Assembly: GCA_013388835.1 (NCBI GenBank)
Contig: JACAEL010000071.1
Coordinates: 9,714-73,713, forward strand
From: Candidatus Thorarchaeota archaeon
GTDB lineage: Archaea > Asgardarchaeota > Thorarchaeia > Thorarchaeales > Thorarchaeaceae
Direction of reading: 5' to 3'
DNA length: 64,000 nucleotides
A program made the position numbers and the translations under genes. Within the stretch, counting starts at the first letter, position 1, and each line of letters begins with the position of its first letter. Under the pieces are notes generated by a model that was not told the origin of the DNA, ran no database searches, and saw only the letters and a program-made list of their open reading frames with translations. Of the stretch, positions 13,579 through 28,211 are shown piece after piece.

Positions 13579-14718
13579 ATGCCCGTGGCGATGCTGCTCA
13601 TAGACTGGGACTCGAAAATAGGCGCTGTGCTCAAGGCAAAAGTTCCTGCAGACTTTGCTGACTACTATCGGGAGGACCTAAACACAGAGATCATGCGTAT
13701 CTTCACATCCCATGCCATGGGTGATGCGACAGCTGGTTTTGCATCTCTGAGTGTTAGAATTGGTGGAGAAGAGTACAACGTCGCGTCATACTACACAGGT
13801 GTAGTGAGAGAAGAGGAGCAGTACTGTGTCTCGCTTCTCCTGACCTCCAATGAGGACCCAAAGACGTACGAGGCCGCTCTGACATCGATAGTCTCTCCAC
13901 TAACGAACTCAGTGACGTCGCTCACCGATGTCGAGCTTCAGTCAGAGCTTGAGAACACCTATCGACGCATCATACGGTTGGCTGGAATGACCGATGAGAG
14001 CAGGCTCGCTCGGTTGTTCTCCGATGAGGTGGCTCGCGCAGTATTTCCCAAGCTCTGGCGTGGCGGCATATCCAAAGAAGACCTCGAGGAATGGCTCAAG
14101 ATGGTTACCGGTCTTCCGAGCGTAAGCGTTGACTCGGTAATTGCTCCCTTCGAAGAACTCGGTCTGGTGAAGACCGAGTGGGTTGATGAGATTGGCCGCA
14201 CCTGTGTGTTCATGATAAAGGACCTAGAAGTGTTTCGTGCTCCACCCTTGGTTGCCATGGAAGCCGCCTCGTCGATTCTTGACCCTGAACTGGCCGCCGA
14301 GTACAAGGCAGAGGTGATGGAGTTCCTGACCGAGTGGCAGAAGACCCCTGAGGACACTGTGTCCGTCGCTCAGGTTCTTGCTGACCCGGACTGCTATGAT
14401 GTGCTGAGCGAGCTCAGGATGCGACCAGTGAACATCGCGGAGCTTGAAGCAAGTCTTGGGATTCCCGCCAAGGAGATGCGGACTGCCATTCAGACACTGA
14501 AGAAGTACAGGATAGTTTCCGAGAAACGCCGCAAGGGTCCTTCTGGTGACTATGACAAGTGGCTCTTCCTTCTCAACGACATAAGGGTCAGGTTGTTCTT
14601 CCCCGAGTACTTCCTCCAGACTCTTGTTGCAGAGCTTGAAAAGGCACCCGACGACTCCCGACAGATGGAGATGGTGCACCATCATCTTCGGCTGCTCCGT
14701 GACAACTTTCCACGTTAG
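13579..14718 (+). CDS. Hypothetical protein with a C-terminal winged-helix domain
   Basis: The internal ATG at 13579 (MPVAMLLIDWDSKIGAVL) is the likely start. The C-terminus (DVLSELRMRPVNIAELEASLGIPAKEMRTAIQTLKKYRIV) is wHTH-like. The N-terminal alpha/beta region is unassigned. Confidence 0.4.
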   Translation: MPVAMLLIDWDSKIGAVLKAKVPADFADYYREDLNTEIMRIFTSHAMGDATAGFASLSVRIGGEEYNVASYYTGVVREEEQYCVSLLLTSNEDPKTYEAALTSIVSPLTNSVTSLTDVELQSELENTYRRIIRLAGMTDESRLARLFSDEVARAVFPKLWRGGISKEDLEEWLKMVTGLPSVSVDSVIAPFEELGLVKTEWVDEIGRTCVFMIKDLEVFRAPPLVAMEAASSILDPELAAEYKAEVMEFLTEWQKTPEDTVSVAQVLADPDCYDVLSELRMRPVNIAELEASLGIPAKEMRTAIQTLKKYRIVSEKRRKGPSGDYDKWLFLLNDIRVRLFFPEYFLQTLVAELEKAPDDSRQMEMVHHHLRLLRDNFPR

Positions 14719-15114
14719 TCCGTCCGTGTTTCTGCATGTGAGCTGTGACTAGGAAGGTTCATATGCCCTCCAGTTGCGCATTTGCATTGAGGATCTGATT
14801 TGTTCAGGTCCGAGCTCTACACTGGGAAGCGCCTTTCCCGTCTGAAACTCGCATTCACAAGATTGGTCCCAAGTCTGAGTTTCTAGCATTGGTCCCTCTG
14901 CAAGACTTGTCTTGCAGGTATTCGCACATACCGATTTCTAGCGCAACCTGGTGGAGAGCTGGTCCACATGACCTGACGGATGCGGAATCCGCCTCGTGCG
15001 GGTTTCGCCTCCCCCCTGTCGTTCGGTCATCTTGTAAACTCCATCGGAAGTATGTACATGAAGGTTTAATTTGCATCCTATCGGAGTAGACACTTGAAGC
15101 ATGAGTGAGTCCCA

Positions 15115-16776
15115 ATGATTCATAACACGTTCCTCATACGCGTTTCCACACTAAAGATCCTTGCAAACTCCAGCTATTGGCCTGTCAAGGTGAATCAGAA
15201 GGACATCAAGGAGTTTGTCACGACAAGTACTGAACTGAGGGCCGCAGATGTCAGTCTGAGAGATCTTCCGTTGATTGTGGGTGACAACAAGTTCGGTGGG
15301 AAGGAGATAGTAAAAGACCTCCTTCTGGTGTTCGCTTGCGACCGCAATGAGGATGATCACAGCCTCCAAGACCGATTGACGCAGGCTTCAAAGATTCTGA
15401 AGAAGCGAATTGCCGAGGTCGGACTCGATTCTGTCATTACAGATTATGCGCGGTTGATTGAGGAATCGGTCACAACGCGACTGAAGATTGCTCTCGTTGG
15501 GGAAGGTGGTGTGGGTAAGACCACTGCTCTTCATCTCCTTCTTGGGGACACTCCTCCACTCCAGTATGTACCCACAATCGCACTGAATCTTGAGACCGTT
15601 GAGAACATCCGATTTGGAAACTACTCTCTGGTCATCTGGGACTTTGCCGGGCAGGAGCGATTCAGGACGCTGTGGCGGTTCTACTTCCATGGTGCTGACG
15701 TCATCTTCCTGGTGTGCGACTCGACACTCAGGAATGTGATAATCAGCAAGGACATCCTGAAGCTTATTCGACGTGATGCTCCCAAGGTGCCCGTGTTTGC
15801 CATTGCTAACAAACAGGACAAGCCCAACGCCATGAAGCCTGAGGTTGTCCAGAAGGTCCTAGGTGTGCCTACCTACCCGATGGTGGCCATCGACAAGGCA
15901 AAGCGTGATGAGATGCTTCGGATCCTCATGACCGCAGCAGCACAGTATGTTGGAGTTGCTCTCCCAGATGTTCCAGCAAAGGACCTATTGCGATTCACTG
16001 ACGAGGCCACAGAGCGGGCCTCAAAGGTCACTGTTCGGGGCGAAAAGCAAACCAAAGCGACCGACGAAGGTGTTGTGGAAGTTGTGGAAGAGGTCCTTGT
16101 GGATGAGGCTGGCCATGTTGTGGAAGCAGATGGCGAATACGAGATAGTCGAAGAGGTCGAGGAAATAGTAGACACGGTTGAAGAGGAAACGCCATCAGTG
16201 CCCACAGCCAGAATGGAACCGGCCGCTCATACTGTAGAAGAGCAGGGAACGGTTGCAGAAGAGCAGGGAACGGTTACAGAAGAGCAGGGAACAGTTGCAG
16301 AAGAGCAGGGAACAGTTGCAGAAGAGCAGGGAACGCATCCTCCTTCAGATGATGTGGAACTGACCGCGGCAACTGAGAGCCAAGTCCGAATCAGCACTGA
16401 GCTGGGCGACGCTCAGATTGAAATCTCTGACTCGGAGATTGAGATCTCCGACTCTGAGATTGAGATTGAAGTGTCCGAAGAGGGAAACGGTGTTCAACTG
16501 GCCAAGGAGTTTCTGTGTCGTGAGCTTGAGGCTGACGAGATACTTGTCGAAGAGCTTGACGCCGTGCCCGCGACGGAGATTGACAAGGCCCTCGAAGCAC
16601 TCCGTAGCGACGAAGCAGCGGGCCCTGATGATGGCACACTCTCTCCCCAAGCAGTCGGTGACGATGAGAAGAAGGGACTAGTTCTTGTACTCGGACGCGA
16701 CAGTCTTCCCAAGTCTAATCAGGATGTCAAGGGCGGCACGAAACACACTGTAGAGTCCGGTACAGACGTAGAATGA
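15115..16776 (+). CDS. Multi-domain small GTPase: N-terminal unknown domain, Ras/Arf-like G domain, acidic tandem-repeat tail
   Basis: G1 GEGGVGKTT, switch I YVPTIALN, G3 WDFAGQERF, G4 NKQD. About 115 aa of unassigned sequence precede the G domain. C-terminal low-complexity tail with EEQGTVA x5 and SDSEIEI x3 repeats. Confidence 0.7.
   Translation: MIHNTFLIRVSTLKILANSSYWPVKVNQKDIKEFVTTSTELRAADVSLRDLPLIVGDNKFGGKEIVKDLLLVFACDRNEDDHSLQDRLTQASKILKKRIAEVGLDSVITDYARLIEESVTTRLKIALVGEGGVGKTTALHLLLGDTPPLQYVPTIALNLETVENIRFGNYSLVIWDFAGQERFRTLWRFYFHGADVIFLVCDSTLRNVIISKDILKLIRRDAPKVPVFAIANKQDKPNAMKPEVVQKVLGVPTYPMVAIDKAKRDEMLRILMTAAAQYVGVALPDVPAKDLLRFTDEATERASKVTVRGEKQTKATDEGVVEVVEEVLVDEAGHVVEADGEYEIVEEVEEIVDTVEEETPSVPTARMEPAAHTVEEQGTVAEEQGTVTEEQGTVAEEQGTVAEEQGTHPPSDDVELTAATESQVRISTELGDAQIEISDSEIEISDSEIEIEVSEEGNGVQLAKEFLCRELEADEILVEELDAVPATEIDKALEALRSDEAAGPDDGTLSPQAVGDDEKKGLVLVLGRDSLPKSNQDVKGGTKHTVESGTDVE
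16237..16341 (+). repeat. Tandem 21-bp repeat x5 (gaagagcagggaac[ga]gtt[ga]ca) encoding EEQGTVA heptads
   Basis: Direct read of the sequence. Five consecutive near-identical 21-mers. Confidence 0.8.
16414..16470 (+). repeat. Tandem 21-bp repeat about x2.7 (gagattga[ag]atctc[ct]gactc[gt]) encoding SDSEIEI
   Basis: Direct read of the sequence. Confidence 0.6.
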
Positions 16777-16902
16777 AGGTCTGAAGACGACTAGATGGAC
16801 CGATGCCTTCATTGGGTGGTTATTCACGGAACAGACCCACTTCTATGTAGATTGGCCCAGCGAGCCGAGGTTCTCCCTTCTAGCAAGTTCGGAGAGGATG
16901 GT

Positions 16903-17244
16903 ATGAGAATAAGCGATATTCAGGCCGGACAGAATGTGCCTGAGATCACGGTCAGAGTGGTTTCAGTCAGTCCTCCGAGGATAATCACGACTCGAGGTGG
17001 ACGTAAGACTCAGCTTCGAGAAGTGTTGGTAATGGACTCGTCGGGCGCCACGATAGTCCTGAGCCTTTGGGGCTTTGGCAGTGGTGATGAACTGAAGGGA
17101 GGTCAGATTGTCAAGATTACTGATGGTTGGGCAAAGGAATGGCAGGGGAAAATACAGCTCTCTCTGGGCAGAGCGGGAAAGGTCGATGTGATACCCGACG
17201 ATGGGAGTATACCTCCGATATCTGATCTGTCCAAGGGACGATGA
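16903..17244 (+). CDS. OB-fold nucleic-acid-binding protein (SSB/RPA-like)
   Basis: Start at the internal ATG at 16903, preceded by GGAGAGG. Sequence ITVRVVSVSPPRIITTRGGRKTQLREVLVMDSSGATIVLSLWG is typical of archaeal OB-fold SSB-like proteins. Confidence 0.45.
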   Translation: MRISDIQAGQNVPEITVRVVSVSPPRIITTRGGRKTQLREVLVMDSSGATIVLSLWGFGSGDELKGGQIVKITDGWAKEWQGKIQLSLGRAGKVDVIPDDGSIPPISDLSKGR

Positions 17245-18975: not shown

Positions 18976-20430
18976 CTAACCCTTGATAACACCCATTGGT
19001 CTGAGTCGGACCACTTTCGTTGCAATCCCGACCGAGTCCGAGACCTTCACGACTTCGTCGACATCCTTGTAGGCTCCGGGTGCTTCTTCAGCAATCCCAA
19101 TGGCTTGGGGTGACTTGACTATGATGCCATCCTTCGCGAGACTGGCCTGTACCTCCCGACCCATAAACTCCCTCTTTGCCTTCTCACGGCTCATGAATCT
19201 GCCCGCACCGTGTGCTGTCGAGCCAAATGACAGTTCCATGGCGGTCGGGCTTCCAACGAGTATGTACGACGCCGTTCCCATTGTACCCGGGATCAGAACC
19301 GGCTGTCCGATGTTCTTGTACTCGGCAGGTGTCTCTGGATGACCGGGTGGGAATGCTCTCGTCGCCCCCTTCCTGTGAACTAGTACCTTGCGCTTCTTTC
19401 CCTCTACTACATGCTCCTCAACTTTGCCTATGTTATGTGCAACATCGTAGACCAGTCTCATCTGAAGGTCTTCAGCAGATTGCCCGAATACCTTTGCAAA
19501 GGCCTCTCTCGTCCAGTGCATCATCGCCTGTCGGTTGGCCCACGCATAGTTAGCTGCCGCGCTCATCGCACCCAAGTATGCCTGCCCCTCTGTTGAGGTG
19601 GTTGGCGTACAACACAGTTCTCTGTCCGGTACCTCGATGTTGTACTTCCTCATCGCTTGGGTCATGATTCTGATGTAGTCACTGCAGACTTGGTGTCCAA
19701 GACCTCTTGAACCACTGTGTATCATGACTGTGACCTGCCCGACCCTGGTTATTCCCATGGCCTTTGCAGCCGCCTCGTCATAGATTGTGTCCACGGTCTG
19801 AATCTCAAGGAAGTGGTTGCCCGAGCCAAGAGTCCCGACTTGCCCCACTCCCCTGCTCTTGGCGTCAGAGGACACCTTTGATGCATCAGCTATCTCAAGG
19901 CTTCCGCCAGCCTCTGTGTGTTCGAGGTCTTGCTCCCAACCGAGACCCTTCTCGATGGCCCACTTGGCACCGAGACTCAACACCTCGTCGACTCCTGATG
20001 AACCGCTCAGCCGGGTCAGTCCGGACTTTCCAACTCCCGTGGGTACATCTTGGAAGAGTCTGTCCACAAGTTCTCTTATCTTGGGTCTCACATCCTTCTC
20101 ATCCAGGCTGGTGGTCAGAACACGCACACCGCAGTTGATGTCATATCCGACCCCGCCGGGTGAAATGACCCCGCTGTCATAGTCTGTGGCCGCTACCCCG
20201 CCTATGGGGAAACCATAGCCCTGGTGTCCATCAGGAAGCACTATACTATGAGTGTAGACTCCGGGGAGGCATGCGACATTCGCTCCCTGCTCGAAGGTTG
20301 CGTCCTGTCGCATCTTATCTACAAGCCTCTGTGATGCATAGACTCTCACAGGTACTTTCATGCAGGGCTTGGTGCCCTTCGATATCTCGTAGACGTTGTC
20401 TCCTATTCTCTTGAGTTCCAAGACACTCAT
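18976..20430 (-). CDS. rtcB: RNA-splicing ligase RtcB
   Basis: RtcB blocks (GYGFPIGG, NCGVR, HNHAGR-like). Start placed at the internal ATG at 20430 (MSVLELKRI). Confidence 0.85.
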   Translation of the reverse strand: MSVLELKRIGDNVYEISKGTKPCMKVPVRVYASQRLVDKMRQDATFEQGANVACLPGVYTHSIVLPDGHQGYGFPIGGVAATDYDSGVISPGGVGYDINCGVRVLTTSLDEKDVRPKIRELVDRLFQDVPTGVGKSGLTRLSGSSGVDEVLSLGAKWAIEKGLGWEQDLEHTEAGGSLEIADASKVSSDAKSRGVGQVGTLGSGNHFLEIQTVDTIYDEAAAKAMGITRVGQVTVMIHSGSRGLGHQVCSDYIRIMTQAMRKYNIEVPDRELCCTPTTSTEGQAYLGAMSAAANYAWANRQAMMHWTREAFAKVFGQSAEDLQMRLVYDVAHNIGKVEEHVVEGKKRKVLVHRKGATRAFPPGHPETPAEYKNIGQPVLIPGTMGTASYILVGSPTAMELSFGSTAHGAGRFMSREKAKREFMGREVQASLAKDGIIVKSPQAIGIAEEAPGAYKDVDEVVKVSDSVGIATKVVRLRPMGVIKG

Positions 20431-20585
20431 CTCCGGCCTGTCTTCGTTGTCAGCAGAGTCTTTTGCTATAAGCGTTCCGAAACAGCCCAGTCCTGTGCGT
20501 CGCCGATTGCTTATTATGTGGCATTTCCAGTAGCTGAAGGTTGGTCCTGACAAGAAACAATGGACCAAGGAGGACAGAAAGCCGA

Positions 20586-22097: not shown

Positions 22098-22799
22098 ATG
22101 AAGATTGTTGTAACGGGTCCATACGAAGCTGGCAAGAGCCTTCTCATTCATCACATAACAAATGGTGCATGCATAAACGTGGAACGGCGCGGGACCACCA
22201 TTGCCATGGATCATGGTGTGGCTAACGTGGATGGTATGACCGTCTTCCTCTTTGGCACTCCGGGTCTTCTGCGCTTCAGAACGATGCGAAAGATACTGAG
22301 TTCAGGTGCTGATGGAATCGTATTCGTAGTTGACTCAGCAGACAAGGAGTCCGACGCAAGAGCCAAGATGTTCTTCAGGGAGATTGCCTTCTTCCTTCCC
22401 GGTGTCCCCTGCGTGGTTGCTGCCAACAAACAGGACCTCTCTGCCGCCCGGCCAGTGGATGTATTGAGGGAGGACATGCGTTTCTTGGCCGGCGTTCCTG
22501 TGATACCGGTGTCCGCAAAGACAGGTGCAAATGTGGATGCTATGCTTCGCACGCTCCTGTTTCTTACCATGATGCAATGGAGTTCAGTCTTCACCAAGTT
22601 CGCTCAGTACAGCGGCACCTCCCACGGACTCAGTAGCCTGATGTCCGACCTGAAGATGGGGCGTGACCAAGTAGTCGGGTATCTTCGTAGATTCGAGCTC
22701 AGAAAGCTCCTTGAGGTGCAAGTGGGCGACGAGCAGTTCGTGGTCCGGGACTCTGTGAGACCTCTCTTGGAGAATCCGTCGATGCTCGTACGACGCTAG
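22098..22799 (+). CDS. MglA-like small GTPase
   Basis: P-loop GPYEAGKS, G3 with PG (FGTPGLLRF) as in MglA, G4 NKQD, 233 aa. Confidence 0.7.
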   Translation: MKIVVTGPYEAGKSLLIHHITNGACINVERRGTTIAMDHGVANVDGMTVFLFGTPGLLRFRTMRKILSSGADGIVFVVDSADKESDARAKMFFREIAFFLPGVPCVVAANKQDLSAARPVDVLREDMRFLAGVPVIPVSAKTGANVDAMLRTLLFLTMMQWSSVFTKFAQYSGTSHGLSSLMSDLKMGRDQVVGYLRRFELRKLLEVQVGDEQFVVRDSVRPLLENPSMLVRR

Positions 22800-22855
22800 A
22801 AGGTCATGGAGAAAGAATCAAAAGCGAGTGAAATGGCCCCGGTGCACAGACAGAG

Positions 22856-23782
22856 GTGAACCCCATGACCGAGGGCGACTCTTTCGAAGACCTTGACCCA
22901 GTACAACTCCTTGAACAGGCCGCAGCAGCTGAGCAAGCGGGTGACAAATCGACCGCGGCCAAAATACTCAACACGGTGGGCAATATCTACATGTCTGTTG
23001 CAGACTATCAGGAGGCCCTTACGAACTTCGAGCGTGCACTGAAGATGTATCAGGAGTTGGAAGAGGCGGCCGGAATTGGGGACACTATCTACAATCTCGG
23101 AGTCGCTCAGATCAACCTTGAGCGCTGGGAGGATGCTGCCAAGACCCTCAGTGAAGCTCTCGCTTTCTTTGAGAAGACCTCCAACGAAGATGGCACTGCA
23201 GACGCGCTCTACGGGTTGGCTCTTGCAAAGCTCGGTATGAATGCATTCGAAGAAGCCATGGAGTTCTTCAAGAAGGCCCAGCGTGTCTACAAGGCTGCCG
23301 GAAATGAGCAGGGCTTCGTGAGCACAGTCATGGATATCGGTAATGCATATGCCGACAAGGAGGACTGGGAGAACGCTGAGAAGACCTTCAAGAAGGCCCT
23401 GACAATCTATCGAGAACTGGATGACGCATCCGGCATCGCAGACGCTCTCTCGTTGTTGGGTGACATTGCTGAGACGCAGGAGAACCAGAAGAAGGCAGTG
23501 GAGCTGTTTGTGGAGGCTGCTCAATACTACGTCAAGGCTGGGATACTCGATATCGCCAGAGAGGTCATAGAACGAGCCGAGAGCAAGCTCTGGGATGTGC
23601 CCAAGGCAACTCGACGGCGCCTAAGACCGATGATTGACGAGGTGATTGACAACCTTCCTGAAGAACCTGAGGAAGAGGCGGAGGACGGGTCCGAACTCAG
23701 CGACGAGGACTTTGATGAGGAACTACTAGACATCGGGACTGAAGGTGAGGACTACTCCGACACGGACAACGACGTCGAGTGA
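22856..23782 (+). CDS. TPR-repeat protein with an acidic C-terminal tail
   Basis: Multiple 34-residue TPR-like units (W-LG-Y-A-F-A-P consensus positions). C-terminus EEPEEEAEDGSELSDEDFDEE... Confidence 0.75.
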   Translation: MNPMTEGDSFEDLDPVQLLEQAAAAEQAGDKSTAAKILNTVGNIYMSVADYQEALTNFERALKMYQELEEAAGIGDTIYNLGVAQINLERWEDAAKTLSEALAFFEKTSNEDGTADALYGLALAKLGMNAFEEAMEFFKKAQRVYKAAGNEQGFVSTVMDIGNAYADKEDWENAEKTFKKALTIYRELDDASGIADALSLLGDIAETQENQKKAVELFVEAAQYYVKAGILDIAREVIERAESKLWDVPKATRRRLRPMIDEVIDNLPEEPEEEAEDGSELSDEDFDEELLDIGTEGEDYSDTDNDVE

Positions 23783-23870
23783 TGTGGCACGAGCAGGCTC
23801 TGACGCCCGGTGGAACCGCAGACAAAACTCTAATACAGTTGCTTCCCTCTCCGGTCTGTATCCGAAGAGG

Positions 23871-26800
23871 ATGACTGTCATGTCCAAAGACTGCCGCAGT
23901 TTGCTCACCATCCTGACCTTTCTCCTAATCTTAGGTGCTAATTGGAGTCCTGGATTGCTTCAGAACACCGCCTCAGAGCATGCACGCGCCGGAGTGTTTC
24001 AACTGGCGGAGTTCATGGACACCTACAATACTGTTCCTCTGCGACGCGCTACCCTTGTCCATGCGGATTCCTCTTCCTACGTCGACGAGTTTGCGTATAT
24101 GGCCTCTATCCCGTCAGGCGTCTTCGTGAACGGTACTAGCCGATATATCTCTCCCATTCTCTTCTTCAATCAGTCCGACTCACAGAGATGGCTTCTTGAG
24201 GACTGGGTGGAGTATCTCGATGTCGATGGCGGGGTTACTCAGTTCACGGTGGTCGGGGATGCCACACTTGAGTCTGTGGAGTCCGTTGCTACAGCGCTCG
24301 GTGTGGTACCTTACCCATGGGTGCGGGGAGGGACCTCGGCAGAGATTGCAGCTTATCTTGCACTGGCCGACTGGAGCGAATCCGACTCTGCGGTCGTCGC
24401 CCTCTCACATGATGCCTGGACCACTCCTACTCCCCTGACAGGGGAATCGAGTCGGTCGATGGAGGGACTGACGACTGTGACACAGACCAGTCAAGTCACA
24501 GTCCTTTCCGACAACCCCTTTTCAGTATCCTTCTCTTCCACCTCCGGTGTTGGTTGGCTGGAGGGCGCATTCAACTGGACAGGTGACTTCTGGTGCACTC
24601 ATGTCTTGGACGATCCCCTTGGACATCATGTGGACTACTCGATAAGGAGCCAGACCTACTGGGAACGCTTCAGTCCACTTGTCCATGCGCCCGTGCCTCT
24701 CTACTTCTGGTATCCGAACACCGCAAACGGCACATGGGATGTCACAATCACTCCTCAATCGATAGGCATCTTCCCTGTCGTTCTTGACTTCGAGCTTATT
24801 CTTCACCCCGGGTACACGGAGTCTATCTCGGTCCCAGCCAACGCAAAGTCACTGGACGTCACTCTGTCTTGGGACAAGAGGGGTACTGACCTCAATCTCG
24901 CTCTGATCGACCCACAAGGACGGCTTGTCCAGTGGGCCCCCTCGGGTAGCCTGATCTCTGGTCCGGGACGCGAGTCTGTTTCGGTACCATACCCGATGGA
25001 GGGAGAGTGGCAGGTCGTTGTCGCCTGGATGAATGCTAATGGCGAGCAGAACAACGCGAAGGTCTCATGGGTCATTGAGCGGTTGCCTCAGGACCTGCAG
25101 TATTTTCTCGAGTCTGCTGCCAATGGTGCCGTCCTTGCTTCCCTTCTCAACTCCCCACTATTGTATACAGACGCAGCATCGGTCCCGGAGATAACGTCTT
25201 GGGTCATTGAAGAACTCGATGTCAACCACATCTTCTTGGTTGACCCCGCCAATCTGCACTCTGTATCGGTCATGACAGAACTCAGTTCACTTGGTGTTGT
25301 GGTCAATCTCTACAACTATCCCCTGGTCTCACAGTGGATTCGCCAGCTGTCCAAGAGCAATGATGTTGTCATCACTATTCCGCGTGGTGATGCATCGGAG
25401 TTCTTTCCAGCAGCTGCATACTCTGCAGCGTTTCATGGTGCTCCAGTCTTCTCTCTGTGTGACCAGCACAACGTGATGACCACGAGAGCTGAGGCAACAT
25501 GGTACCCGTATCTCATAGGACCAGAGATCGACATCTACATCACCAGTAGATACTCCACACGAAGTGAGAACGGCTGGTTCGACGAGCGCATACCTAACCG
25601 TTATACGATGACGAGTTCGGTTGAGGCGTTCGAGGGTTTCCTAGACGACCGGGGTGCGTATAACTCGACTGTCCCTCAGAAAGTGGTAGTCGTGTCCCCT
25701 GATACTGTCATCAAGACAAGCTTCGACCGGTCCATACAGAGCCACTTCTTGCCCGGTCGGATTCCTGCCGCAACACCCTCTCTGGCAGCGGTGCAGGTCA
25801 ATCGTGCGGCTCTCCACAGGTTCATTTTCCGGATCGCTGAGTCCGCAGACCGTGCGCTAGTGACGATGTATGCGTACACTCACGGTGCTCAGTTCATTGA
25901 CAACGGTGCCCAGATCCATACCATCTACCAATTTGAGAACACATCCGACTCTGTTCAAGACGCCGGGTTGGAAGTCGATGCTCATGTGGGCTACAGCGAA
26001 GTCTTCGCATCTCTCGCGGCTCAACCTGCCCTGTGGGTCCTTAGCACCCACGGGACGCTGACGCGCTATCCCACGGACCCTCCAGCTCGCCCGGGTGGAG
26101 ACGGTCTCTTCTCTCTGCGCAGCACGGATGCAGAGTATGGTCGTGAGAGTTCGTCAACCAGAGACGCAAATGCAGACAAACTGGTCAACCCTGTCCAGTT
26201 CACGGAAGAGGAGTCTCTTCATCGAATCGAGTCGACCGCCACGCTCGCGGCCGGTGTGGGTAACATGGGGTCTCCCATTGTTATTCTCACAGCCTGTCTT
26301 CTAGGAGGTTCAATGCTTCCCATGACGCTCATGGAGCACGGGGCTGTGTCAGTTGTGGCCTCGCCACGCACAGTCTATTTCCAGCCGGCTGCGATGGTAT
26401 CTCTGGTCATGCTTGAAGACCTCGCCAGCGGTGAGACCATTGGTAGCGCGCTTGGTCATGGAATCGTGCAGGTCTCATATGACTATTCAAATCCGCCCAG
26501 CCAAGACCCCAGAGACTATGCATGTCAGCATGTGCTCTTCGGCGATCCGAGCATCATGCTCTATGACCCTGATGCTGTTCCAAGGGTGCCTGCTGTAGAT
26601 GGGCAATCTGCAGTCTTTGGCTCTCACGTACCTGGACGTGGAACGAACCCGGTGGCTGCACTGGGCACCTCGAGTACGCTTCCGTCGGCACTCACACAAG
26701 CTGGCGTGGACTATGACTATTATGAGGTTGATAACTACTCTGGCTTCCGTAGCCTCCTTCCAGTCCGGAAGTGCGTGATTCTAGAACCTGGCTCTTACGA

Positions 26801-27743
26801 CTCATTCTCCGCATTGATGGCTGTAGATGCATCTGCTCTGGCAACATTTGTGTCCGGCGGTGGTGTCTTGGCCCTGATTGGCGTGTCCGACGATAGTGAA
26901 TGGCTCCCGTGGGGAGCTTCAGTCGACGAAGGTCCTAGCGGCCTGTCTATCGAACTCACTGACACTACACACCCTCTGATGACAACTCCCAATCTCCTCA
27001 ACAGCAGCACATCTTACCAAGGCCGTTTCTTGTCCATGTGGGAGAACTACTCGGTCCTTGCCACCGACCCCATAGGACCCGTAATCATCGCATCTTCTGT
27101 CGGCTTTGGAAAGGTGATGCTGTCAACCATCCGTCCTAGTGGCGAATGGCTGAACCAGTTTGTGGAGAACATCGCTCTGTGGGGCAACCAGCCGTCGCTG
27201 TGGTTGAGATCCATCTCACTCAGTCAGGTGATCATATGGGGCGGAGACCGTGTAACGGTCGTGCTCCGTATCACGGACCGTGTTGGCAAGCCTGTCTCCG
27301 GGGTTGCTCTGAGTCTACGGTTGAACTCCTCAGATGTCAGTGACAGACTCCACGAGACCACTCCTGGTCAGTTCAGCATACTGTTGGACGAGACGTGGAC
27401 GAATGAACATGTGGGTATGTTGACATTGAACCTGACAGCGAAGAAGGCTGGGCATGACACACTCACACTTGTGCTGTACCGATTCATGTACGTCCGGCCG
27501 TCGCCCTGGCCTGCGATAGCGATACTCTCGATTGGGATAATAGCGCTCTTCGTCGGGTATGCATATATCAAGCGACGCAGAGGTGAGACAATCCTACCAT
27601 CATGGCACCTTGGAAGCCTCATCAGAAGAGACAACATGACCAGAGAAGAGCGCAAGCGGAAGAAGGAGGAGGAACGCAGACGGAGAGAGGAGCGAAAGAA
27701 GAAGGAATCGGAGTTTGATGCCAAGGAGTTCTTTGGTGTATGA
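23871..27743 (+). CDS. Large (about 1,290 aa) type-I membrane surface protein with a highly charged cytoplasmic tail
   Basis: Signal peptide at the internal ATG at 23871 (MTVMSKDCRSLLTILTFLLILGA). Many NxS/T sequons. C-terminal TM helix AIAILSIGIIALFVGYAYI followed by an RRRGE...REERKRKKEEERRRREERKKKESEF tail. Confidence 0.6.
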   Translation: MTVMSKDCRSLLTILTFLLILGANWSPGLLQNTASEHARAGVFQLAEFMDTYNTVPLRRATLVHADSSSYVDEFAYMASIPSGVFVNGTSRYISPILFFNQSDSQRWLLEDWVEYLDVDGGVTQFTVVGDATLESVESVATALGVVPYPWVRGGTSAEIAAYLALADWSESDSAVVALSHDAWTTPTPLTGESSRSMEGLTTVTQTSQVTVLSDNPFSVSFSSTSGVGWLEGAFNWTGDFWCTHVLDDPLGHHVDYSIRSQTYWERFSPLVHAPVPLYFWYPNTANGTWDVTITPQSIGIFPVVLDFELILHPGYTESISVPANAKSLDVTLSWDKRGTDLNLALIDPQGRLVQWAPSGSLISGPGRESVSVPYPMEGEWQVVVAWMNANGEQNNAKVSWVIERLPQDLQYFLESAANGAVLASLLNSPLLYTDAASVPEITSWVIEELDVNHIFLVDPANLHSVSVMTELSSLGVVVNLYNYPLVSQWIRQLSKSNDVVITIPRGDASEFFPAAAYSAAFHGAPVFSLCDQHNVMTTRAEATWYPYLIGPEIDIYITSRYSTRSENGWFDERIPNRYTMTSSVEAFEGFLDDRGAYNSTVPQKVVVVSPDTVIKTSFDRSIQSHFLPGRIPAATPSLAAVQVNRAALHRFIFRIAESADRALVTMYAYTHGAQFIDNGAQIHTIYQFENTSDSVQDAGLEVDAHVGYSEVFASLAAQPALWVLSTHGTLTRYPTDPPARPGGDGLFSLRSTDAEYGRESSSTRDANADKLVNPVQFTEEESLHRIESTATLAAGVGNMGSPIVILTACLLGGSMLPMTLMEHGAVSVVASPRTVYFQPAAMVSLVMLEDLASGETIGSALGHGIVQVSYDYSNPPSQDPRDYACQHVLFGDPSIMLYDPDAVPRVPAVDGQSAVFGSHVPGRGTNPVAALGTSSTLPSALTQAGVDYDYYEVDNYSGFRSLLPVRKCVILEPGSYDSFSALMAVDASALATFVSGGGVLALIGVSDDSEWLPWGASVDEGPSGLSIELTDTTHPLMTTPNLLNSSTSYQGRFLSMWENYSVLATDPIGPVIIASSVGFGKVMLSTIRPSGEWLNQFVENIALWGNQPSLWLRSISLSQVIIWGGDRVTVVLRITDRVGKPVSGVALSLRLNSSDVSDRLHETTPGQFSILLDETWTNEHVGMLTLNLTAKKAGHDTLTLVLYRFMYVRPSPWPAIAILSIGIIALFVGYAYIKRRRGETILPSWHLGSLIRRDNMTREERKRKKEEERRRREERKKKESEFDAKEFFGV

Positions 27744-27848
27744 GTGTTTTGCGCAAATGAGTGGGTCGGACGCCCCATTCTCATAACAAGATTTTATAGT
27801 GGAGTGGATGCGACTCACCTCATCTACCTTGGTGTAGAGGTCAGCCAG

Positions 27849-28211
27849 ATGGCAAGCCGTGTAGACAAGATCAACTCAGCAATTCGCGATTTTGAAACAG
27901 TGCCCGGTGTGGAGGGCGCCGCACTAGTCTCTAGTGATGGTCTGATGATATCGTCAGCATTGCCTGAGAGTGAGCAGGAGCGCGTTGCCGCAATAAGCGC
28001 TGCGATGCTCTCCCTGGGTGAGAAGATCTCAGGTGAGCTCAATCGCGGCAGTTTCCTTGAAATATACGTGAAGAGTGAGAGGGGTTACACACTGATGACC
28101 TCTGTTGGGGACAATGCCCTCATGATGGTCCTGGCCAAGCCCGACGCACAGCTGGGGCTTATCTTCCTAGACATGAAGAGGCTGGCTCAGAGCCTCGTAG
28201 ACATACTGTAG
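27849..28211 (+). CDS. Roadblock/LC7 domain protein (MglB-like)
   Basis: Typical Roadblock pattern from the internal ATG at 27849: VPGVEGAALVSSDGLMISS...AAMLSLGE...GYTLMTSVGDNALMMVL. Confidence 0.75.
   Translation: MASRVDKINSAIRDFETVPGVEGAALVSSDGLMISSALPESEQERVAAISAAMLSLGEKISGELNRGSFLEIYVKSERGYTLMTSVGDNALMMVLAKPDAQLGLIFLDMKRLAQSLVDIL

Follow-up and report, generated by a model that had tools for sequence, protein, structure and literature searches.

The eukaryote-like toolkit of Asgard archaea includes small GTPases that carry a fused longin or roadblock domain, and such domains act as platforms in the Rag–Ragulator, MglA–MglB and SR-beta–SRX systems. We know of no protein of the Asgard ArfL group with an established function. 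Five longin domains fused to Arf-like GTPases of Lokiarchaeum were reported in 2016 (as cited in PMC4917890), Tran et al. (2024) described longin–GTPase and GTPase–roadblock architectures in MK-D1 and classed the longin- or roadblock-fused Asgard GTPases as Rag-like by structure, and Zhu et al. (2025) reported longin domains at the N-termini of Asgard Arf. According to Vargova et al., ArfL is an Asgard-only group without direct relation to eukaryotic Arf. Here we describe a gene of this kind at positions 15115–16776 of a 64,000-nucleotide stretch (the window) of contig JACAEL010000071.1 from Candidatus Thorarchaeota. Its product is a three-part small GTPase, composed of a longin domain, a G domain grouping by sequence with ArfL, and a tail that is long, acidic and disordered. 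The initial annotation of this open reading frame (ORF) as a Ras/Arf-like GTPase with an N-terminal accessory domain and an acidic tail is borne out, and the fusion of small GTPases to extra domains, which it had put down to Asgard archaea, is documented in that group.

Earlier work has established the longin–Arf-like architecture for Asgard archaea, and a database record of the window protein exists, the ORF product being identical to NCBI NWF96811.1, a "GTP-binding protein" from a Ca. Thorarchaeota metagenome-assembled genome (MAG). The published descriptions that we compared do not mention the Thorarchaeota-wide acidic tail with its conserved islands, the near-invariant G domain, or the fixed pairing with a gene for a 379-residue protein.

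Set against the ArfL group (Klinger et al. 2016; Vargova et al. 2024/2025), the window protein has a 35–45% identical G domain that clusters with the published ones; what the Thorarchaeota orthogroup has in addition is an acidic tail of 205–393 residues with three conserved islands. The longin-fused ArfL NVM28342.1 from Helarchaeota has a homologous N-terminal domain, whereas for KKK45962.1, an ArfL from Lokiarchaeum, no relationship of this domain was detected. Eukaryotic Arf and Asgard ArfR proteins provide the best Pfam and PDB matches and have similar signatures at switch I, the interswitch and switch II, NKQD as the G4 motif, and a matching G-domain fold (template modelling (TM) score 0.7–0.79); the window protein differs from them in its ArfL grouping, its long acidic tail and a longin domain instead of the amphipathic helix. 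Like Rag/Gtr with roadblock proteins and like MglA–MglB, it joins a small GTPase to a longin/roadblock platform, and its N-terminal domain matches LAMTOR2 and MglB. However, the platform is an N-terminal longin and not the C-terminal roadblock of Rag, and the sequence similarity is weak. SR-beta with SRX (the SR-alpha longin) and Arf1 with the AP/COPI sigma/mu longins also pair an Arf-like GTPase with a longin, but as separate polypeptides acting in trans, and the window protein resembles them at the level of fold only.

The gene and the elements of its first two domains are as follows (window coordinates, strand, description, basis).

15115..16776, + strand: complete coding sequence, 553 residues (ORF list, exact protein match, conserved start position)
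15115..15471, + strand: longin domain, residues 1–119 (structure model, Foldseek; no Pfam match)
15472..15963, + strand: small-GTPase domain, assigned to the ArfL group, residues 120–283 (Pfam Arf, PDB Arf1, motifs, ArfL clustering)
15499–15522, + strand: P-loop GEGGVGKT, residues 129–136 (motif position)
within 15472..15963, + strand: switch I PTI, residues 153–155 (motif position)
15640–15654, + strand: DFAGQ, residues 176–180 (motif position)
15808–15819, + strand: NKQD (G4), residues 232–235 (motif position)

Longin and G domains across Thorarchaeota

A scan of one genome per species gave 79 loci, nearly all from MAGs labelled Thorarchaeota and a few from those labelled "archaeon", Promethearchaeota or Hermodarchaeota; two further loci were added. 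An orthologue was present in 68 loci, two of which are overlapping pieces of one contig, with 62–75% identity over the longin and G domains. The start MIHNTFL is kept in all orthologues, with ATG, GTG or TTG as the start codon, so the N-terminal region is part of the same gene as the G domain, and the earlier concern that it might be a separate upstream gene or non-coding falls away. NWF96811.1, encoded on a contig of 94,844 bp, is the sole member of its own 90% protein cluster. Residues 1–292 are matched by more than 1,000 database proteins, and the great majority of the named ones are labelled Thorarchaeota.

A paralogue of ~50% identity was found in 13 loci. The paralogues (~305 residues) end 15–29 residues past the G domain and lie elsewhere in the genome, away from the orthologue neighbourhood. 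Some genomes carry both proteins, among them the bin27 chromosome with a 605-residue orthologue and a 303-residue paralogue. At one locus (L002, 6001–7948), a tail-less 306-residue paralogue adjoins a second Arf-type G-domain protein of 296 residues, which suggests a tandem pair, possibly a heterodimer.

The AlphaFold2 (AF2) model of residues 1–121, built from a 61-sequence alignment, had a mean predicted local distance difference test (pLDDT) score of 95.1 and a predicted TM score (pTM) of 0.89. The β-strands comprise residues 2–9, 14–20, 53–55, 58–66 and 69–75; one helix (28–44) lies between the second and third strands, and a helix at 81–102 follows the last one, together with two short helices at 104–109 and 111–119. 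Among the roadblock, longin and profilin topologies as laid out by Tran et al., this corresponds to the longin, i.e., ~120 residues in the order β-β-α-β-β-β-α-α with an extra C-terminal helix and no N-terminal helix. Foldseek against the PDB matched the domain to sigma/mu-N adaptins, COPI zeta/delta, LAMTOR2/p14, MglB and the VAMP7 longin (E ~ 1e-4 to 1e-3, TM 0.55–0.69, 8–19% identity), with AP sigma/mu and COPI zeta/delta as the top matches. A Pfam search of residues 1–119 returned no longin or other family. As modelled, the domain has a fold of the longin/roadblock superfamily with longin topology, which settles in favour of longin the initial suggestion that the first ~115 residues could be roadblock- or longin-like.

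Residues 2–9 already form β1 of the longin (pLDDT > 90), and the model contains no helix ahead of the G domain apart from the longin helices; an Arf-type N-terminal amphipathic helix was not found. The conserved residues of the domain are I2, H3, L7, Y21, W22, E33, K59, F73 and D76. Longins of the GTPase-activating protein (GAP) type, i.e., the FLCN/SMCR8/NPRL2/C9orf72 class and related Asgard longins, carry a GP motif before β2 and an arginine finger (PMC12290439). No GP motif was found before β2 of the window protein, where the β1–β2 loop reads VSTL (residues 10–13). A profile of the Thorarchaeota N-terminal domain, compared by hhalign, proved homologous to the N-terminal domain of the Helarchaeales NVM28342.1, which starts MIHSIYVIR (probability 89.5%, E 2e-6), and gave no alignment to that of Lokiarchaeum KKK45962.1.

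The motifs proposed from the initial reading (GxxxxGKT, PTI, WDFAGQE and NKQD) were all located. With G1, the switch I Thr, a DxxGQ-type G3 that includes the switch II Gln, an NKxD-type G4 and profile matches, the domain is an intact member of the Ras superfamily. Pfam matches are confined to residues 120–274, with none on residues 1–119 or on the tail: Arf had the E value of 2e-21, and Arf, Roc and Ras were all above cut-off, whereas Gtr1_RagA (17 bits, cut-off 22) and SRPRB (15.9 bits, cut-off 25) were under it. NCBIfam returned the generic small_GTP domain alone (TIGR00231, 66.8 bits vs. a cut-off of 42.5 bits). The closest solved relatives by sequence were Arf1 proteins (PDB, E 4e-19). Foldseek of the full-length model did not tell Arf, ArfR, Arl, Ran, Rab and Rho apart.

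For family placement, we used published G domains from the Helarchaeales and Loki rows of Table S3 in Vargova et al. as references. In BLASTP, the window G domain scored 99–134 bits against the seven ArfL references, 78 bits against human ARF1 and 62 bits against RasL; the scores were ≤ 37 bits for Asgard RagGtr, 35 bits for Lokiarchaeum ArfR and ≤ 35 bits for MglA. A neighbour-joining tree placed the window protein, its orthologues and the paralogues inside ArfL (bootstrap 67), with Helarchaeales NVM28342.1 as the sister (bootstrap 79), and left ARF1 and Loki ArfR outside the clade holding the window protein. The clustering with published ArfL has moderate support in a small reference set. 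These sequence comparisons assign the G domain to ArfL, the Asgard-only group, and not to eukaryotic Arf/ArfR, Rag or Ras. The initial Arf-like label agrees with Pfam and the PDB, and BLASTP and the tree refine it to ArfL.

Conserved islands and tandem repeats in the acidic tail

The tail (residues 284–553, 270 residues) contains 27.8% D+E and 7% K+R, and its net charge is −56. Nearly all complete orthologues have an acidic tail, 205–393 residues long with 26–42% D+E. The ~270-residue acidic, low-complexity tail of the initial annotation was thus correct in length and acidity, but the low complexity is not uniform: the tail consists of three conserved islands and a poorly conserved spacer, and the repeats sit between the conserved modules. 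In the full-length AF2 model, residues 1–280 are confident, and pLDDT falls below 50 for residues ~300–457, both repeats included. No roadblock α-β fold was modelled by AF2 in the tail, which appears as disorder and short helices. Its elements are listed below.

15961..16014, + strand: post-G element LPDVPAKDLLRFTDEA, residues 283–300 (alignments; present in tail-less paralogues too)
16075..16170, + strand: island 1 VVEVVEEVLVDEAGHVVEADGEYEIVEEVEEIVD, residues 321–352 (acidic-hydrophobic motif pair; 72% identity)
16171..16482, + strand: variable acidic spacer, residues 353–456, predicted to be disordered (27% identity, 68% occupancy, pLDDT ~28–36)
16237..16341, + strand: 21-bp repeat encoding EEQGTV[A/T], four units and a partial fifth (Tandem Repeats Finder (TRF), unit sequences)
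16405..16467, + strand: 21-bp repeat, degenerate GDAQIEI (16405–16425) and two SDSEIEI units (16426–16467) (TRF, unit sequences)
16483..16650, + strand: island 2, residues 457–512, including LAKEFLCRELEADEILVEELDAVPATEIDKALEALRSDEA (conserved helical module; 58% identity, 98% occupancy)
16660..16701, + strand: island 3, residues 516–529 (degenerate form DDEKKGLVLVLGRD of the [ED]LExILG motif of the orthologues)

In an alignment of 59 orthologues, we measured the conservation of each region by its identity to the majority residue. The G domain reached 94%, the longin domain (residues 1–119) 61% and the post-G element, counted from residue 284, 65%; within the tail, the values were 72% for island 1 (321–352), 27% for the spacer (353–456) and 58% for island 2 (457–512). 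AF2 modelled residues 288–315 as a short helix followed by a strand and another helix. Both motifs of island 1 separate the orthologues from the paralogues: EEV.VDE.G was present in 54 of 60 orthologues and [DE][FYW]E[IVL][IVL]EE in 50 of 60, vs. none of 13 paralogues in either case. The form [DE][FYW]E[IV][IV]EE could also be read as resembling an LC3-interacting region/Atg8-interacting motif (LIR/AIM); we set this reading aside, as nothing backs it beyond the pattern. Island 2 has three helices in the AF2 model (458–470, 475–483 and 486–497, pLDDT 80–89). It has no relative among PDB sequences, and a profile search of 5.8 billion proteins matched only seven short proteins of 111–152 residues. 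In island 3, the pattern [ED]LE.[ILF]L occurs in 31/60 orthologues, and AF2 models a helix at residues 516–526 of the window protein.

A few orthologues depart from this plan. In the orthologue P0013 at locus L053 (contig CAVSBO010000007.1), the tail is basic and rich in K/R (23% K+R vs. 15% D+E), and it contains a 51-bp repeat of its own. This is probably an assembly or sequencing frameshift, since a frameshift through GAA/GAG-rich acidic codons would give a K/R-rich tail. The orthologues at L008, L055 and L062 are truncated.

TRF delimited the first array at 16236–16335 (period 21, 4.8 copies, 94% match, score 179) and the second at 16407–16466 (2.9 copies, 82% match, score 85). The units of the first array read, in frame, EEQGTVA, EEQGTVT, EEQGTVA, EEQGTVA and a truncated EEQGT-HP, and their DNA differs by 1–2 nt; the EEQGTV unit pattern had 4 matches vs. 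0.00 expected from 100 shuffles. The two SDSEIEI units share 18 of 21 nt, and every difference is synonymous. The initial annotation had described five exact EEQGTVA copies at 16237–16341 and three SDSEIEI copies at 16414–16470, perfect at the DNA level. A 21-bp array does occupy the former interval, but with four full units, one of them EEQGTVT, and a partial fifth; SDSEIEI occurs only twice, preceded by one degenerate unit; and the match percentages show that neither array is perfect.

Both arrays fall between islands 1 and 2, inside the spacer, which is not conserved. EEQGTVA was absent from the other orthologues (0/59), several of which have PDSEISIDIEL, a relative of the second unit, in one copy. 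Other, unrelated in-frame repeats occur within the same spacer region of 24/60 orthologues, such as 63 bp × 2.2 in L029 and 27 bp × 2.3 in L046, and the array score is the highest for the window protein. The length of the tail varies between species, mostly within the range given above, and the closest orthologue is ~75% identical to the window protein. Neither a two-unit pattern nor a flank-plus-unit pattern had an exact match when metagenome contigs were scanned. Because of their location in the spacer between conserved modules, the repeats look like lineage-specific, neutral spacer variation and not a functional array. Their pattern across orthologues fits recurrent slippage in a spacer of loosely constrained length, and the repeats themselves are of little consequence.

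Gene neighbourhood

The gene order around the orthologue is thymidylate kinase (Tmk), the 379-residue protein, the GTPase, an oligonucleotide/oligosaccharide-binding (OB)-fold protein and a nucleoside deoxyribosyltransferase (NDT)-like protein, followed by EamA, RtcB (opposite strand), a protein with an AIRS (AIR-synthase-related) domain and a 233-residue GTPase. Tmk and the NDT-like protein were assigned by Pfam. The two immediate neighbours in the window are as follows.

13579..14718, + strand: upstream neighbour, 379 residues, ArsR-type winged helix near the C-terminus (listed ORF from GTG 13408; orthologues start MPVAM, 13579)
16795..17244, + strand: downstream neighbour, homologue of single-stranded DNA-binding protein (SSB) with a single OB fold (PDB Sulfolobus SSB 1o7i, E 3e-12)

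Of the 68 orthologue loci, 62 have the 379-residue gene upstream of the GTPase, and five of the six exceptions are contig ends; some loci have one to three further genes between the two. The protein is 81–89% identical across Thorarchaeota. In tblastn, its best-segment identity was 75–90%, vs. 59–82% for RtcB in the same table. The family comprises 225 representatives at E ≤ 0.001, some of which are fusions with SIR2_2 and TPR domains or with giant Laminin_G proteins. Pfam found no family match on the 379-residue protein, including NPR2, Folliculin and C9orf72. In the PDB, the family profile matched the winged helix of PH1932 (E 5e-5), and a weaker match to Mnd1 (E 0.006) may mark another. Near the N-terminus, the protein has an invariant WDSKIG (W-D-x-x-x-G), recalling the WD…GP of C9orf72 (W33-D34…G38-P39; PMC12290439). 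Two other possible relationships were tried and rejected: hhalign showed no similarity to the longin domain of the GTPase itself, and the product of the 1332-residue ORF in the window is unrelated.

The SSB-like gene follows the GTPase in 64/68 orthologue loci. In the window, its ORF begins after an 18-bp gap from the GTPase stop codon and overlaps the start of the NDT-like gene (17241) by 4 bp. The listed ORF appears over-extended, because an internal Met at 16903 opens the region that aligns to SSB, and the true start is probably there.

The non-coding gap between the 379-residue gene and the GTPase (14719–15114, 396 bp) is unusually long and holds a G+C-rich stretch, GGATGCGGAATCCGCCTCGTGCGGGTTTCGCCTCCCCCC. 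A TATA-like TTTAATTT is located at ~15065–15072, ~45 nt ahead of the GTPase ATG, and the GTPase may have its own promoter. Given this gap and the TATA-like element, co-transcription with the 379-residue gene is not implied. Rfam found no match across the whole window, gap included. A sigma-70 promoter and terminator scan, uninformative for an archaeon, gave counts at background level.

Further downstream, a second GTPase-related cluster occupies 22098–28211 (+ strand). It encodes the 233-residue GTPase, which groups with MglA2-5 (22098–22799) and is 70–85% identical in most syntenic loci, a TPR protein (22856–23782), the 1332-residue protein without a Pfam match (23745–27743) and a Roadblock/LC7 protein (27744–28211). 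The RtcB ORF (18976–20568, − strand) is listed as 530 residues from a TTG, and the Pfam RtcB domain begins at residue 94; its true start is probably internal.

Candidate role and alternative readings

By analogy with the longin/roadblock platform systems, the protein may be a nucleotide-dependent (GTP/GDP) switch, and its longin domain, which occupies the position of the membrane-binding amphipathic helix in true Arfs, may be a platform for dimerisation or regulator docking, as for Rag, MglA and SR-beta. The acidic tail would be a flexible tether, with the acidic-hydrophobic motif pair, the small helical module and the ELExILG-type helix as predicted recruiting elements. Since the islands have no relatives of known function, partner recruitment by them is something we infer. 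The tandem repeats would alter only the length of the spacer, presumably as products of lineage-specific replication slippage. The upstream winged helix-turn-helix (wHTH) gene and the downstream SSB-like gene are candidate functional partners. We hold with moderate confidence that this is a Thorarchaeota-wide longin-ArfL orthologue acting as a switch with tethered binding modules, and with much less confidence that any specific partner is the right one.

Several observations weigh against this picture. The support for ArfL in the quick neighbour-joining tree is moderate (67–79%), with a single ArfR reference. AF2 confidence is low for island 1, and the islands are without detectable relatives of known function in the PDB or in the search of 5.8 billion proteins. 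Moreover, the GTPase is preceded by the 396-bp gap and its own TATA-like element.

It has to be asked whether the three-part ORF or its repeats could result from gene-calling fusion, a frameshift or MAG assembly error. The source is a MAG, the exact protein is a singleton, and frameshift-like defects do occur in some orthologues (the basic tail at L053, the truncations at L055 and L008). However, the frame running through longin, G domain and acidic tail is kept in ~60 independent assemblies, and the conserved islands continue in that frame downstream of the repeats. Simple assembly artefact is further argued against by the point differences between the repeat units, which are unlike collapsed or expanded identical copies, and at 105 bp the whole first array would fit within a typical Illumina read. 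The possibility raised initially that the repeats are an assembly artefact is therefore not supported, and we give an artefactual origin hardly any credence.

A Rag/MglA-type reading would have the longin mediate homo- or heterodimerisation and the 379-residue protein serve as the cognate regulator, a GAP or GEF (guanine nucleotide exchange factor), as a prokaryotic analogue of GATOR1, FLCN and C9orf72–SMCR8, which are longin–GAP complexes of eukaryotes. The adjacency and conservation of the 379-residue gene, the winged-helix region(s) in its product, the resemblance of its invariant W-D-x-x-x-G to the C9orf72 motif and the Rag-like class of Tran et al. are all in its favour. We nevertheless find it unlikely. 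With approximate reference sequences, hhalign of the 379-residue family gave no significant result, the probability being 0.3% against human NPRL2 and 2.5% against C9orf72, the latter alignment spanning the longin region including WD…G. The motif reads G-A and not G-P, the protein is unlike the longin of the GTPase, the Pfam families named above were not matched, and other genes intervene in a few genomes. The GTPase itself has neither the C-terminal roadblock nor the G-domain sequence of Rag/Gtr, as the Gtr1_RagA and RagGtr scores show, and its G4 is NKQD, while the Asgard RagGtr references mostly have HKxD. An extended version, in which the longin-ArfL GTPase, the tail modules as docking sites and the 379-residue protein would form a dedicated GTPase–regulator module, a counterpart or precursor of GATOR1, folliculin and C9orf72–SMCR8, is in our view decidedly doubtful.

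We also considered a true ArfR-type membrane-recruitment switch, ancestral or related to eukaryotic Arf/Sar/SR-beta, in which the longin would be comparable to SRX binding SR-beta. Arf1 gives the best Pfam and PDB sequence matches, the Arf-like signatures VPTIALNLETV and WDFAGQERFRTLWRFYF are present, and Arf1 and the Asgard GerdArfR1 are among the top Foldseek matches, although Ran, Rab and Rho are not set apart from Arf by their Foldseek scores. All seven ArfL references nonetheless outscore human ARF1, the tree nests the protein in ArfL apart from ARF1 and Loki ArfR, and ArfL has no direct relation to eukaryotic Arf (Vargova et al.). In addition, the longin β1 begins at residue 2, where an amphipathic helix would be needed, and the strongly acidic tail argues against electrostatic membrane binding. 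These points make such a switch improbable. To a similar degree we doubt that the tail connects the GTPase with the metabolism of DNA or nucleotides, whether by mimicking nucleic acid or as an acidic, SSB-type recruitment tail working with the SSB-like, thymidylate kinase and NDT-like genes. The order from Tmk to the NDT-like gene is kept in more than 60 loci, with the SSB homologue 18 bp past the GTPase stop and the two enzymes assigned by Pfam. Yet synteny among housekeeping genes (RtcB, AIRS-domain, EamA) may simply mean a stable chromosomal region, and no feature of the tail sequence ties it to DNA-binding proteins, which leaves the link inferential.

For the longin-ArfL switch that we favour, the meaning lies in its retention: practically all Thorarchaeota genomes sampled have retained one orthologue. 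Because the orthologue is kept, its G domain is near-frozen, its neighbourhood is fixed and its tail modules are conserved, it is a well-defined candidate for the first ArfL biochemistry, including the partners that its tail and the adjacent genes may supply. Most interesting beyond this are the conserved tail modules and the highly conserved upstream gene containing the wHTH, and the significance of the finding would rise if this 379-residue neighbour were the cognate longin-type regulator.

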